Shown here: one piece after another, positions 1 to 7,463 of the stretch
Position numbering within the stretch: the stretch's first letter is position 1
Layout of the letters: each line of letters begins with the position of its first letter
From: a virus
Lineage: Monodnaviria; Loebvirae; Hofneiviricota; Faserviricetes; Tubulavirales; Inoviridae
Reading direction: 5' to 3' (one strand)
Length of the DNA stretch: 10,788 nt
IMG/VR virus record: IMGVR_UViG_2711768069_000001
The notes under the pieces: generated by a model
Told to the model about the DNA's origin: nothing
Seen by the model: the letters and a program-made list of their open reading frames with translations, nothing else
Database searches by the model: none
Made by a program: the position numbers and the translations under genes

Positions 1-180
1 TTACTTAATTTCATCCTGGATATCGATGCCTTCTGGTCCAAGATCTTCCAGTAAGGACTCAAGAATACACATCAGTCTATATTGATTTATGCCTGTACGG
101 GATGTGCTGTTTTCCCAGGCATCCCGTTCACGTCTGACCTGCTTCAAACTTTTTTCAATTTTTTCAGCTGTGATCGTCAT
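1..180 (-). CDS. Hypothetical small protein (59 aa from ATG at 180; track ORF extends to 228); stop codon is the first 3 nt of the window
   Basis: ORF track. The ATG at 178-180 overlaps the 3' end of the upstream HigA-like gene by 17 nt. Only a weak Shine-Dalgarno. No recognisable family. Confidence 0.35.
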   Translation of the reverse strand: MTITAEKIEKSLKQVRRERDAWENSTSRTGINQYRLMCILESLLEDLGPEGIDIQDEIK

Positions 181-430
181 ATTTGCCTGCTTCTGCTTTA
201 TTTTTCTGCTGTCGCAGATCATATGCATACTGAAGACGTAACCAAAAATCAGGAGTGCTTCCCATTATTGCTGCGATCGGAACGGCCTGCTCAGCGGTTA
301 ACGCCATTTTCCCTTCTAAAAAAGCTGGCTGGATGCCAGTTTCTTCGATAAATCGGTTAACACTAATGCCCATCTCAGCCAACTCTCTGGCAATAATTTC
401 GCCCGGATGAGACACATCAAATTGCTGCAT
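164..430 (-). CDS. HigA/VapI-family HTH (XRE-type) antitoxin-like DNA-binding protein, 88 aa
   Basis: Protein carries the family signature HPGEI...(HTH)...GSTPDFWLRLQYAYDLR. ATG at 428-430 with an AGGA Shine-Dalgarno 9 nt upstream. The 18-bp palindrome at 455..472 sits in its promoter region. Confidence 0.8.
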   Translation of the reverse strand: MQQFDVSHPGEIIARELAEMGISVNRFIEETGIQPAFLEGKMALTAEQAVPIAAIMGSTPDFWLRLQYAYDLRQQKNKAEAGKYDDHS

Positions 431-454
431 AACTAATCATCCTGTCAGATGCGG

Positions 455-472
455 ATTTGCGCATGCGCAAAT
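455..472. promoter_or_regulatory. Perfect 18-bp palindrome ATTTGCGCATGCGCAAAT, copy 1, about 25 bp upstream of the HigA-like start; candidate operator
   Basis: Read directly; identical second copy at 830..847. Confidence 0.55.
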
Positions 473-488
473 TATCACTTTGAGCATG

Positions 489-803
489 TTAGATCGATTG
501 TTCAAAGTAACGGGCCAGAGCCGTATAAATCAGTCGGTTTAACGGTTGTTGATCGTCTTCGGCCTGCTGTTTCGCTCGTTTGATCGTATCCGGATGGAAC
601 CAGATCCCCTGATAATCTGAGCCTTTCGGACTGGAGAAGTACCGTATGTGTACATGCCCTGCTTTTCGTTGGTTCAGATACCACTCAACGATTTCACTGG
701 CTATGTCGGCCTTTAACTCATCGCGAATGCCTGCCAGATTATTAACCGGCTGGATTAACTCATCTTCAATTTTCAGTCGGATAAACTTCAACTTTGTAGC
801 CAT
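489..803 (-). CDS. Hypothetical protein, 104 aa from ATG at 803 (track ORF extends to a GTG at 941); candidate partner or toxin of the HigA-like protein
   Basis: ATG at 801-803 is preceded by a GGGGA Shine-Dalgarno at 5 nt spacing, and the 18-bp palindrome at 830..847 lies 27 nt upstream. Position upstream of a HigA-family gene is typical of HigB-type toxins, but no toxin motif was recognised. Confidence 0.5.
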   Translation of the reverse strand: MATKLKFIRLKIEDELIQPVNNLAGIRDELKADIASEIVEWYLNQRKAGHVHIRYFSSPKGSDYQGIWFHPDTIKRAKQQAEDDQQPLNRLIYTALARYFEQSI

Positions 804-3477: not shown

Positions 3478-4743
3478 TTATGCAGAAAGGATAATTCTGA
3501 ACGCTGCTATTGAGTAAATGAACAGAAAAATAACACCAATCATCGCAGCGTTATTATTTAATAATGTACAATGTGTTTCTAACTTATATTGTCCGTTAAA
3601 AACATCCAGTACAGGTTTTGGACACTCCGCATATTTAATTCTTTCGCTTTCTGCATTAAGTGCATCGGCTGAATCTTCAAAGGGGTTGAATGATAATAAT
3701 GGAGATAAAATTTCAGTACCTGCAGGTATATTTTCCAGTTCAGGCGGCCCAATACCAGGATCATCACCAAGATTAACCTGTTCTCCTGTCGATGGATTGG
3801 TTGGTGTTGTCCCTGTTGTGTCAGCAGGTAGTGTAAAATCGGGTTTGTCTGACGGTTTGAGAAAGTCAGATACAGCGGGCTTTGCAGCACCAGTTGAAGC
3901 AGTTACATCACGCGCTGTCACTGGTCTGGTGTGGTCGTATGCAAAACCAGAATACCCTGCTTCGGAGGCTGCTTTTTGCCATGCATTATTTACAACATCA
4001 GAAATAACTTCTGGCGAAAGATCTGTCTGCATTTCCGTATCTGAAATGCTATTAATAGCATCCTGTACGCTAACGGTTTTAATTACTTCATTACTACCCG
4101 GCACATAATCAGGCTGACATGTAGGCATAACCTTATTTGTACCGCAGGAAACAAGGTTTGCAGTTCGTGATGCCCAAAGCTGTGTTTTAGATGAATCAAT
4201 ATAAAATTTGATGGTTCTTAAATCAGACCTTGTCGGGTCTGCATTATATTGCTCAACTATGTATGTCTGACAGAACGTCGGATTATGCTGGCATATCGAC
4301 TGAGCTCCCTCAGTTGCTGTAACATAGCTTTCTGCGCCAATATTCCAGTAAAACCCTTTAACACCCTGCTCTCCCGTTATTTCTTTTACTTTGATTTGTA
4401 CGGAGTCCTCAGTTTCAATTAGCCATGCCACCGCACCGGAAGCGGCAAGAGCTATAAGCGTACCGCGGCTTAACAAAGCCCCTCTGAGTCCAACTGATAA
4501 CCACGAACGACCAGAGACACCTGCAACGGTATAAGCTTTCGAACCTGAAGCGGTAGAATTTAGATAACCTGAAATACCTTTTAATGTTCCGTAGTATCGA
4601 GGATCATTCGCTGAGAAACCACGCTGTGTAATTTTGTTTTTAATGGTTCCTGAAATGGTCTGATTAATAACAGCTGCGTTCTCTGCACTGTATGAATAAA
4701 AGCTAATGATAGATAACAACAATGCAATTAAAAGAGTTTTCAT
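3478..4743 (-). CDS. gIII: Adsorption/minor coat protein pIII-like, 421 aa
   Basis: Signal peptide MKTLLIALLLSIISFYSYSAEN resembles M13 pIII MKKLLFAIPLVVPFYSHSAET. Pro/Thr-rich linker and C-terminal hydrophobic anchor. AGGAGG Shine-Dalgarno. Size and position match pIII. Confidence 0.85.
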   Translation of the reverse strand: MKTLLIALLLSIISFYSYSAENAAVINQTISGTIKNKITQRGFSANDPRYYGTLKGISGYLNSTASGSKAYTVAGVSGRSWLSVGLRGALLSRGTLIALAASGAVAWLIETEDSVQIKVKEITGEQGVKGFYWNIGAESYVTATEGAQSICQHNPTFCQTYIVEQYNADPTRSDLRTIKFYIDSSKTQLWASRTANLVSCGTNKVMPTCQPDYVPGSNEVIKTVSVQDAINSISDTEMQTDLSPEVISDVVNNAWQKAASEAGYSGFAYDHTRPVTARDVTASTGAAKPAVSDFLKPSDKPDFTLPADTTGTTPTNPSTGEQVNLGDDPGIGPPELENIPAGTEILSPLLSFNPFEDSADALNAESERIKYAECPKPVLDVFNGQYKLETHCTLLNNNAAMIGVIFLFIYSIAAFRIILSA

Positions 4744-5617: not shown

Positions 5618-6733
5618 TTATGCAACATGCAAATAACGTGGTTTCACATACCATGATGGAATAAAGCATTCACTTACTGATACTTCTCTCACTTTCTTAA
5701 CAATAACGGGGCTAAATTTGGAAATATTACATCGCTGAGCAATGTCAATACCTATTTTTCTAAGCCTGGCACGATGGGTTTGCACCTGTGTTTTAGAAAA
5801 ATCAAATGAGTGACCGTGCATCCACTGGATAGCATACATCGCAGTGGTATTCGCTGATCGAGTTGAGTCAACAATGCCTTCACTGATTAAATGTTCACTA
5901 ATCGTTTCAAAATCCATCGACGTCACCATAAGCTTTTTATCAAGAGCTAAAAAATCATCATGTAAATTATTGAGTATTGAATAGTCGGAAAGCCCCCAGT
6001 AAATAAGATGGTTACGTTGCAGATACCGGGATTTAAGTTTTTGCTCAAATCTGACTACGCCCTGTTCCTGACAGAAATCAATAATCTTTTTGATGTATGA
6101 AACTTCAGCTGATGAATCCCCGAATTTATTCTTTATTTTATTAAGGGAGTGAAGCTTAATTTCATGTGCTTTATTATATACAGTCGGATAAATGAGCAAG
6201 GCGTTTCCTTTTTTGGATAGCCAGTCAACTGATTTACCGTTGCTGTGTAATCGCGGCTCACTATTGCGATACCGTAATGTTGAAAGGCCCGATATATAGT
6301 CATCTACATTATCTGCTCCGACTGTTCGGTTGGATGTAATGTGAATTTCACGAATACATGCGCCATCAGTAACCGTTCCGGCCTTTTCAGTTTCACTTGC
6401 CTGTCTCTGCCACAATTTCGTACATTTTGTGAATTCCGGCAGACCAAGGTCATTCAGGATCCGGTTGTATACCTGCACACAGGCATCAACAGAAGTGTGA
6501 CCAAACAAATTGTCCAGTCTGTTCCATCGGGATGGATTTCCCGACATTTTCAGAATCGAACCTTTAATCGATATCGAAACCTGATCGCAAAAAGATCCTT
6601 TATGTTGAAACACAGGCTGATTCAGTGAACCGGCCTCCCCTGTTTCAAGCTGAATGCGCTGATAAGCCACTTCACCCAGGATAGGAAGCTGGTAACCAAA
6701 GTCCTGTTCGATGGTAAGCCAGTCAAAAAACAT
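5618..6733 (-). CDS. gII: Rolling-circle replication initiator pII-like, 371 aa from ATG at 6733 (track ORF starts at a TTG at 6817)
   Basis: Large ORF directly upstream of gV as in Ff, divergent from the repressor. GGGAGA Shine-Dalgarno before the 6733 ATG. Assignment rests mainly on synteny and size. Confidence 0.75.
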   Translation of the reverse strand: MFFDWLTIEQDFGYQLPILGEVAYQRIQLETGEAGSLNQPVFQHKGSFCDQVSISIKGSILKMSGNPSRWNRLDNLFGHTSVDACVQVYNRILNDLGLPEFTKCTKLWQRQASETEKAGTVTDGACIREIHITSNRTVGADNVDDYISGLSTLRYRNSEPRLHSNGKSVDWLSKKGNALLIYPTVYNKAHEIKLHSLNKIKNKFGDSSAEVSYIKKIIDFCQEQGVVRFEQKLKSRYLQRNHLIYWGLSDYSILNNLHDDFLALDKKLMVTSMDFETISEHLISEGIVDSTRSANTTAMYAIQWMHGHSFDFSKTQVQTHRARLRKIGIDIAQRCNISKFSPVIVKKVREVSVSECFIPSWYVKPRYLHVA

Positions 6734-6883
6734 GTGTCTCCCGGAATTGACGCGCAAGGGTCTAAACTGATCTTTAACGGTGTCAGTTATACTAAATTGG
6801 AGAGATCTCAGTGTCAATATAATTGATACCGTAAAATGTCAAAACTGACCCTCGGTGTCAGCATGCTAAAAACAGGAGGTAGA

Positions 6884-7369
6884 ATGAATGCCTGTATGAA
6901 TAAAACAGAGAGTTCACTGGTAATGGCAGCAGACAAAGCATGCGCAGAAAGGATCAAACAATCGATTCTTCAGAACTTCACGTACGATGATATTGAAAAT
7001 GAAACCGGGATCAGTGTCAGTACATTGAAACGCCTGGCATCTGGTGACCGTGAACCGAAACTCATCGAAATTCGACAGATTGCAAAAGCTACAGGAAGGA
7101 ATCCGGTTTGGTTGGCGTTTGGAAACGACGCAGGTTATGAAATTGAAACCGTGTCCGCAGATATGAAATTAGTTGAGCCAACAGCCAGGTACGAAATTAA
7201 AGGAGCTACAGATAGCTCAGCCGATCATGAAGTAAAGATCAGGGTCATCGCTGCGATAAAAGACATGCGTTTGGAAGATGTTGTTTTTATTGAAAGAATG
7301 ACAGAGTTACTCAATCTCCAGAATACAATTCAGAACATTTCTGGACGAAAAATGAAGCCGCCAAGATGA
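6884..7369 (+). CDS. Phage HTH transcriptional regulator, putative lysogeny repressor, 161 aa from ATG at 6884 (track ORF starts at 6836)
   Basis: HTH-like segment ETGISVSTLKRLASG near the N-terminus. Divergent from the replication gene, as rstR is in CTXphi. AGGAGG Shine-Dalgarno 4 nt before the 6884 ATG; start remains uncertain. Confidence 0.6.
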   Translation: MNACMNKTESSLVMAADKACAERIKQSILQNFTYDDIENETGISVSTLKRLASGDREPKLIEIRQIAKATGRNPVWLAFGNDAGYEIETVSADMKLVEPTARYEIKGATDSSADHEVKIRVIAAIKDMRLEDVVFIERMTELLNLQNTIQNISGRKMKPPR

Positions 7370-7376
7370 TAACGTG

Positions 7377-7441
7377 CCCCGGGAAACCGGGGTAAAGTTC
7401 GGGTGTCACAGAACCCCGAACCGCTTCGCGGTACAAATTTT
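7377..7441 (+). terminator. Three GC-rich stem-loops between repressor and cargo gene A; last one followed by a T-run; possible terminator or attenuator
   Basis: Stem-loops read directly: CCCCGG-GAAA-CCGGGG (7377-7392), GTTCGGG-N11-CCCGAAC (7397-7421), ACCGC-TTC-GCGGT (7420-7432) then ACAAATTTT. Hairpins 2 and 3 share bases 7420-7421, so they are mutually exclusive. Confidence 0.3.
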
Positions 7442-7463
7442 ACACACAGCAGAGGAAGGCGGT

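Follow-up and report, generated by a model that had tools for sequence, protein, structure and literature searches.

Palindrome-headed cassettes with a predicted TraY-like protein and an orphan HigA-family protein at the attP-proximal end of a dif-integrating filamentous prophage of Escherichia coli

Do the three small genes that follow gIV in a filamentous (inovirus) prophage of Escherichia coli form a toxin-antitoxin module, or do they serve another purpose? The stretch analysed here, called the window, is the 10,788-nucleotide (nt) virus record IMGVR_UViG_2711768069_000001, a segment of the E. coli chromosome that holds such a prophage beside hipBA; the region under study is its stretch between gIV and the phage attachment site (attP). 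A preliminary description of the window had proposed a toxin-antitoxin module there, with a 104-amino-acid (aa) protein in the role of HigB, a HigA-family protein in the middle and an overlapping 59-aa open reading frame (ORF) at the end. Our analysis leads to another reading, to which we assign a probability of about 55%: positions 1-848 are an attP-proximal accessory and regulatory end made up of palindrome-headed cassettes, probably regulated by a ribbon-helix-helix (RHH) protein, and are not a HigBA operon.

Three small proteins between gIV and attP

The three genes were found on the minus strand after gIV as described, and RefSeq annotates exactly these three coding sequences in nine E. 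coli genomes (Table 1). Compared with a diverged relative whose cassette is 72% identical at the amino-acid level, the ratio of nonsynonymous to synonymous substitution is 0.12 for the 104-aa gene, 0.19 for the 88-aa gene and 0.23 for the 59-aa gene; since all three are under purifying selection, they are real genes. An extension of the first ORF to 150 aa, proposed by some gene callers, is unsupported, the distant homologs being about 100-110 aa long. Directly after the gIV stop codon lies a GC-rich hairpin with a folding energy of -29.1 kcal/mol (z -3.56; none of 200 shuffled sequences was as stable) and no U-run behind it. It is probably a terminator or an RNA-stability element, and it sets the module apart from the gIV/morphogenesis operon as a unit of its own.

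Structure prediction gave the 104-aa protein, with high confidence, a tandem RHH DNA-binding fold in which two β-α-α units of a single chain form an RHH pseudo-dimer. Its best structural matches were TraY, single-chain Arc and AvtR, with TraY of the F plasmid as the closest solved structure, and the toxin fold envisaged in the preliminary description was not recovered, as neither RelE/ParE nor any other toxin fold was among the strong structural matches. Sequence searches returned only sub-threshold Arc-like and RHH matches, yet they did so in both halves of the protein (DUF6364 and Arc-like PHROGs, with Antitox_RHH in some family members). The protein belongs to no curated RHH or TraY family, and searches of Pfam, NCBIfam, PHROGs and PADLOC gave no match to a toxin or defence family, in agreement with the earlier remark that it carries no recognisable toxin motif. 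Based on the predicted model, the 104-aa protein is, with high confidence, a single-chain TraY-like DNA-binding protein and not a toxin, and it is the probable regulator of the cassettes.

A HMMER scan of 1.84 billion representative sequences recovered 33 representatives with E < 1e-3, each of about 100 aa, and the profile of this family matches the RHH proteins ORF56, SvtR, omega, Arc and CopG in the PDB (best E 7e-4). Among genome contigs, a degenerate DNA pattern for distant RHH homologs found nothing, and a single-protein scan found one Kluyvera locus. In conjugative MOBF/MPF_F plasmids, pYE854 among them, a homolog with 38% identity heads the tra operon, which is the position of TraY-like proteins. 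The plasmid homologs fit a functional, relaxosome-type TraY; the window copy, lying between gIV and attP of an inovirus with no relaxase present, does not. Plasmid homologs and other family members alike are annotated as hypothetical proteins, and no Pfam family covers them. These results define an unannotated family of single-chain double-RHH proteins of about 100 aa, common to filamentous phages and to the heads of MOBF/MPF_F tra operons, and provide a structural relative of F TraY outside conjugation. On pYE854 (NC_010377), two adjacent tandem-RHH paralogs (6537-6890 and 7001-7321) stand at the head of the tra operon, and the stretch that separates them from the following gene contains repeated TGATGATACAAA-type palindromes.

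The middle gene was rightly assigned to the HigA family. Its 88-aa product scores 55.6 bits against the NCBIfam model TIGR02607, 'HigA family addiction module antitoxin' (cut-off 47.7 bits), matches Proteus vulgaris HigA (4mcx) with an E value of 3.9e-23 and is about 55-60% identical to HigA of the Rts1 type, with the N-terminal HPGE motif and the C-terminal FWLRLQ..YDLRQ helices conserved. The closest plasmid relatives (54-62% identity) all adjoin a RelE/ParE or HigB gene, with the toxin upstream. Here no HigB was found upstream in the same operon, the neighbour being the 104-aa protein with its tandem RHH model. No ORF in any frame of positions 1-1077, ten alternative ORFs included, matched a toxin family, and tblastn with Rts1-type HigB returned nothing from the window or any related phage locus, even at an E value of 10. 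The HigA-like protein is derived from an Rts1-type HigBA pair and, without HigB, is an orphan. The RefSeq label suggests an adjoining toxin, and with none found here a false toxin-antitoxin call can be removed.

All phage copies of the 88-aa protein share a four-residue gap in helix 3 (PATVSRLLAGK becomes PA----FLEGK), whereas their HigB-linked homologs do not have it. The deletion covers Thr37-Arg40 of the recognition helix, so the operator-reading helix is not preserved; in P. vulgaris HigA, Arg40 makes the sole base-specific contact, and Thr37 and Ser39 touch phosphates (PMC12266136). In addition, the phage protein has an isoelectric point (pI) of 4.8, compared with 9.7 for residues 1-84 of P. 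vulgaris HigA. Judged by these sequence features, it is probably no longer a DNA-binding repressor but a protein binder. Conservation under selection indicates that the HigA-like protein has some function, for which a DNA-independent, protein-binding role would be the simplest inference, and its likeliest partners would be a HigB-type toxin acting in trans or the co-inherited 59-aa protein. Without its DNA-reading residues, the orphan HigA is a compact candidate for a phage-borne antitoxin against HigB-type toxins. Orphan antitoxins have recently been reported as counter-defences, and an orphan HigA is in line with this.

A chromosomal locus of a RelE/ParE toxin and yddM (HigA family), related to Rts1 higB, was present in about 1350 of 5426 E. 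coli genomes and is a possible in-trans target of the phage protein. A distant inovirus (L032) has an antitoxin-like helix-turn-helix gene by its dif-like site (8038-8412, minus strand; PF21716 dnstrm_HI1420, E 3e-5, below cut-off) with no recognisable toxin gene adjoining. Orphan antitoxin-like genes near attP may thus be a recurring feature of inoviruses.

As noted in the preliminary description, the third gene overlaps the second, by 17 nt. Its 59-aa product had no match in Pfam, NCBIfam, PHROGs or PADLOC, is confined to these phages and has a pI of 4.8. An AlphaFold2 model with a mean confidence score (pLDDT) of 85 has helices at residues 5-22 and 28-47 and a disordered acidic tail, and a fold search with it returned generic helical hairpins only, none with E < 1. 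The 59-aa protein is therefore modelled as a phage-specific helical hairpin that bears no resemblance to toxins. A 64-aa paralog, which has the motif RRERDAW in common with it in the alignment, is found by attP in other phages, and a degenerate remnant of this paralog lies between the fourth palindrome (see below) and dif in the window's own prophage. Two deletion variants (P0055 and P0009) were also seen, of which P0055 joins the N-terminus of the RHH protein to the C-terminus of the 59-aa protein with loss of HigA; in the tandem array of strain LD39-1 (L002 29210-30012) the middle copy has disrupted HigA-like and RHH genes.

For all three proteins together, only the HigA match was significant in Pfam, NCBIfam, PHROGs and PADLOC, and none was matched by a PADLOC defence model at E values up to 1. 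Of the proposal that the module might stabilise lysogeny or act as a regulatory or defence switch, the regulatory part is plausible, and the defence part found no PADLOC match. Rfam gave nothing meaningful for positions 1-1200, a result that speaks against a toxin-antitoxin RNA, type I or type III, from any known family.

Palindromes at the gene starts

The first two genes had been credited with palindromic operators of their own, and the same palindrome does stand before both. The two copies, P1 and P2, are one identical, perfect 18-bp palindrome, ATTTGCGCATGCGCAAAT, and are exactly 375 bp apart; the window holds these two against 0.09 expected, with no further match at up to three mismatches, and they are not a product of chance. 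P2 is all that the 58-nt gap between the 104-aa gene and the HigA-like gene holds, and a -10-like GATAAT abuts its upstream edge. As RNA hairpins the palindromes are weak (P1, -11.3 kcal/mol, z -1.7), which favours double-stranded DNA sites for a protein.

The complete prophage contains four palindromes, and a start codon or a gene remnant follows closely on each. P3, which follows 5 nt after the 59-aa stop codon, precedes the nine remaining codons (MKIFKIDVT) of a 62-aa gene, which two relatives (L011 and L006) have intact, and P4 precedes the degenerate remnant of the 64-aa paralog. In phages of the window type (A-type), 22-35 nt separate the centre of a palindrome from the start codon downstream of it, across four gene contexts. 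Every related phage examined has kept the palindrome before its RHH gene: relatives in Salmonella and Kluyvera, which have a 63%-identical RHH protein and no HigA, retain the RHH gene together with two palindromes (TTTTGCGCATGCGCAAAA). These relatives keep the same 16-bp core, so that a comparison of co-variation between RHH protein and operator is uninformative. The plasmid RHH homologs have different repeated palindromes downstream of the gene, which are suggestive only.

Between the window phage and L011, nucleotide identity is 92-93% up to P2 and 75-81% beyond it, and for the same pair of phages the HigA-like and 59-aa proteins are 72% identical compared with 95% for the RHH protein. Because identity steps down at P2, the HigA-like and 59-aa genes behave as a single exchangeable cassette. 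In L011 (1412-2228), L005 (8448-9121) and L016 (5312-5986), about 700-800 bp are inserted between the RHH gene and the palindrome that follows. The insertion has an internal 17-18-nt direct repeat (TGAGCGAAGTCTTG(C/T)CA) at a spacing of 268-269 nt and no convincing ORF.

In the window lineage, no small DNA-binding protein other than the tandem RHH protein occurs with the palindromes in every case. All these relatives have an HTH_3 repressor-like gene as well, but neither its own promoter nor that of gII carries a palindrome. Since the RHH protein always co-occurs with the palindromes and these two promoters have none, we assign the palindromes to the RHH protein as its putative operators, at about even odds.

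Among 2.9 million viral contigs scanned, 21 contain the exact 16-mer of the palindrome, and seven of these are inoviruses from three lineages. The other 14 have single copies and no Zot or gII matches and vary in GC content; we take their number to be roughly at chance level. One of the two further inovirus lineages (L030, L032 and L039) has a Zot protein 25% identical to that of the window. In all three, gIII (signal peptide MRKF(T/F)IYLLCLNLSLLPAFQAHA) starts at the ATG in the centre of the palindrome, just after the gVIII terminator, and L032 carries two further copies downstream of gI, with an Ff-type nick site, CTTTAATAGTGGACTCTTGT, at a distance of about 200 nt. In the other lineage (L028), the palindrome sits between gII and the following gene, some 30 nt before the latter. 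We noticed post hoc that the 7-mer TGCGCAT is found both in the half-site TTTGCGCAT and in the arm of dif to which XerC binds (GGTGCGCATAA). The two lineages with several palindrome copies are dif integrators, and the likeness to the XerC arm is suggestive, although it may be coincidence.

A literature search for the palindrome sequence returned no paper. The components of the locus are each of a known kind; their combination and the palindrome have not been described previously. Standing at gene starts in three inovirus lineages, the palindrome is an unexplained cis-element, and the identity of its binder would inform on the control of accessory genes in integrated inoviruses.

Readings of the locus and related systems

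We infer the binder of the palindrome, the direction of regulation and the role of the HigA-like protein, and on these terms the favoured mechanism would run as follows. The RHH protein, as predicted, would pack a whole ribbon-helix-helix 'dimer' into one chain, as TraY of the F plasmid does. Two molecules would sit head-to-head on each palindrome, each placing its two-stranded sheet into one TTTGCGC half-site. Binding 22-35 nt upstream of the start codons would make the RHH gene autoregulated and would co-regulate the downstream cassettes, namely the HigA-like and 59-aa genes here and the 62-aa and 64-aa genes in relatives. In the second cassette, the HigB-less HigA, devoid of its DNA-reading arginine, would act as a protein binder.

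Several observations weigh against this reading. A consensus scan for sigma-70 promoters found no site, so 'operator' is a name given to the palindromes by position. In T-type relatives the second palindrome is followed by a gene only at a distance of about 180 nt, or by none at all. Profile search and blastp found no homolog of the 104-aa protein in either of the other two inovirus lineages. The palindrome is therefore of greater age or in wider use than the RHH gene, and its binder may be a shared or host factor. The occurrence of the palindrome in two lineages without the RHH protein lowers our confidence in the operator assignment; it leaves the rejection of a toxin-antitoxin module unaffected. 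Likewise, the shortened recognition helix of the HigA-like protein is no proof that DNA binding is lost, and overlapping, co-inherited HigA and 59-aa genes would also fit a toxin-antitoxin pair in which the antitoxin comes first.

If the palindromes were bound by a factor shared among dif-integrating inoviruses or supplied by the host, the TraY-like protein might instead be an architectural accessory in nicking by gpII and replication, in packaging, or in Xer recombination at attP. We consider this somewhat unlikely, although a good deal agrees with it: inoviruses of three lineages, two of them without the RHH protein, account for a third (7/21) of the contigs with the 16-mer, two palindromes of L032 lie close to the nick site, TGCGCAT is common to the half-site and the XerC arm while dif-like sites occur in the window lineage and in at least L030 and L032, and TraY, the closest fold, is a relaxosome accessory protein. 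Moreover, Ff phages keep their origin and packaging signal where this cluster lies. Yet the number of palindromes tracks the number of cassettes, from two to four, and the distance from site to start codon is near-constant in the four gene contexts. No Ff-type nick site was found in the window, the XerC similarity, noticed after the fact, extends over 7 of 11 nt, and no candidate for the shared factor was identified. A pair with the antitoxin first, in which the 59-aa protein would be a novel small toxin neutralised by the HigA-like protein and the RHH protein a third, regulatory component like omega, appears improbable to us. It would account for the 17-nt overlap and for the divergence of the two genes as one cassette; HigA is an antitoxin family, the omega repressor is among the profile matches of the RHH family, and inovirus toxin-antitoxin modules are known (PMC6813254; Pf4 PfiAT). 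Against it, the 59-aa protein is acidic, soluble and predicted to be a plain helical hairpin that resembles toxins in neither fold nor family, its 64-aa paralog occurs by itself next to attP, without HigA, in Kluyvera and related phages, and a widespread Salmonella lineage (more than 170 contigs) has the 59-aa ORF reduced to 28 codons with HigA intact. Furthermore, the close relatives of the HigA-like protein pair with RelE/ParE toxins upstream of them and not with downstream genes.

The model of the preliminary description, a 104-aa toxin in the HigB position neutralised by the HigA-like protein, has only gene order in its favour, the 104-aa gene being upstream of a HigA-family gene. We now regard it as highly implausible, given the confident prediction of a tandem RHH with F TraY as the closest solved structure, the 58-nt palindrome-bearing gap that separates the two genes, the persistence of the 104-aa gene in relatives without HigA, the homologs that head plasmid tra operons, the absence of toxin and defence families from its matches, and the lack of any HigB at the locus. 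A genuine toxin-antitoxin pair would have been one more of the modules known from inoviruses. A bolder extension of the favoured reading, which we think unlikely, would see the locus as a plasmid-derived toolkit in a pilus-dependent phage, in which a TraY-family regulator would be joined by a 'DNA-blind' HigA whose sole retained task would be to neutralise HigB-type toxins in trans. The palindrome, a hitherto unrecognised cis-element of at least three inovirus lineages, would link the cassettes to one another. As part of the same idea, the HigA-like protein would be a counter-defence or anti-addiction factor against Rts1-type HigBA on MPF_F plasmids or against chromosomal higB-yddM.

Among known systems, TraY of the F plasmid, a relaxosome accessory protein (PDB 9f0x and related entries), has two RHH motifs in one polypeptide like the predicted 104-aa protein; its monomer holds the whole RHH-dimer fold and binds repeated direct and inverted sites (PMC12117103). 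Distant homologs of the 104-aa protein occupy a TraY-like position at the head of MPF_F tra operons. However, identity to F TraY is only 8-11%, the TraY Pfam family gave no match, and the setting here is a filamentous phage without relaxase or oriT, where the candidate sites are perfect 18-bp palindromes before genes. The small viral RHH proteins Arc and Mnt of P22 and AvtR of Acidianus filamentous virus 6 act on operators, symmetric or repeated, that lie at the promoters of their own and of adjacent genes, but the 104-aa protein shows only sub-threshold RHH sequence matches to such proteins, and the operator sequence and the regulated genes are unrelated.

With HigB-HigA of P. vulgaris and Rts1, the 88-aa protein shares family, motifs and more than half of its residues. 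It differs from them in the missing HigB, the deletion of Thr37-Arg40 and its acidic character, and at the locus a phage palindrome takes the place of the hig operators and an overlapping, phage-specific 59-aa gene follows. The omega-epsilon-zeta system likewise has three genes with an RHH regulator first, and omega itself is among the profile matches; here, in contrast, no zeta-type or other recognisable toxin was found, a helix-turn-helix HigA stands in place of epsilon, and the genes are not a single operon. PfiT/PfiA of Pf4 and other inovirus modules are likewise accessory modules at the end of a filamentous prophage, and Roux et al. (2019) reported 15 sets of putative toxin-antitoxin pairs in inoviruses (PMC6813254). 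Modules of the PfiT/PfiA type contain a recognisable ParE/RelE-type toxin, whereas the present region has none.

Prophage setting and neighbouring features

The window had been described as carrying a filamentous prophage, and the inovirus gene set and dif sites bear this out. The genes gII-gV-gVIII-gIII-gVI-gI-gIV, the flanking dif and dif-like sites and the occurrence of tandem copies identify the element as a filamentous prophage that integrates at dif through XerCD, with a copy pattern typical of such inoviruses. Of 5426 complete E. coli genomes, 9 contain the element, often in more than one copy in tandem, and strain LD39-1 has tandem arrays. In full genomes the left boundary is a perfect dif site; at the right boundary, a dif-like site within the window has its XerC arm intact and its XerD side degenerate. 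In a phage database, the 104-aa protein was found in no deposited phage, and distant DNA similarity was confined to the gII and gIV regions; the IKe-like phages of the UPphi paper are without these genes.

Table 1. Features of the window and of related contigs. Positions are those of the window unless a contig is named; P, palindrome.
Feature	Position	Strand	Remarks
59-aa ORF	1-180	minus	Predicted acidic helical hairpin; stop codon is the first triplet of the window
88-aa ORF	164-430	minus	Orphan HigA-family protein, Rts1/Proteus type
P2	454-473 (core 455-472)		Centre 33 nt upstream of the HigA-like start
104-aa ORF	489-803	minus	ATG at 803; predicted tandem ribbon-helix-helix (TraY-like) protein
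P1	829-848 (core ATTTGCGCATGCGCAAAT, 830-847)		Centre 35 nt upstream of the 104-aa start
GC-rich stem-loop	891-934	minus	Inverted repeat directly after the gIV stop
gIV (secretin)	938-2149	minus	Annotated GspD; PF00263 in relatives
gV, gVIII, gIII, gVI, gI/Zot		minus	Same strand as gII and gIV
gII	5618-6817	minus	
HTH_3 repressor-like gene	6836-7369	plus	
Four cargo genes	7374-9028	plus	Between the repressor-like gene and attP
Terminator-like hairpin	9057-9093		GGCCGCTGCGA...TCGCAGCGGCC then TTTT; closes the plus-strand cargo operon, just before the dif-like site
dif-like site	9096-9123		Right prophage boundary
hipA and hipB	9200-10788		
dif site	L001 11662-11689		GGTGCGCATAATGTATATTATGTTAAAT; left prophage boundary in full genomes
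P3 and P4	L001 11885-11898 and 11983-11996		Left of the window, 5 nt and about 100 nt past the 59-aa stop, followed by dif
Palindrome copies, L032 (IMGVR_UViG_3300005046_000178)	3889-3908, 6884-6903, 6919-6938		
Palindrome copy, L030	7759		
Palindrome copy, L039	5579		
Palindrome copy, L028	281		

The four cargo genes encode a 158-aa membrane protein, an 89-aa zinc-ribbon protein, a 159-aa protein and a 129-aa protein, among which the zinc-ribbon protein has a weak match to the PADLOC candidate PDC-M14A (E 3e-6). The cargo differs in other copies of the phage, with MltR-family and DUF2971 proteins in LD39-1 and a 369-aa protein in 6EVA. About 45 nt on the hipA side of the right dif-like site recur without change next to the true dif on the left, and this repeat resembles the 3' end of the phage 64-aa gene.

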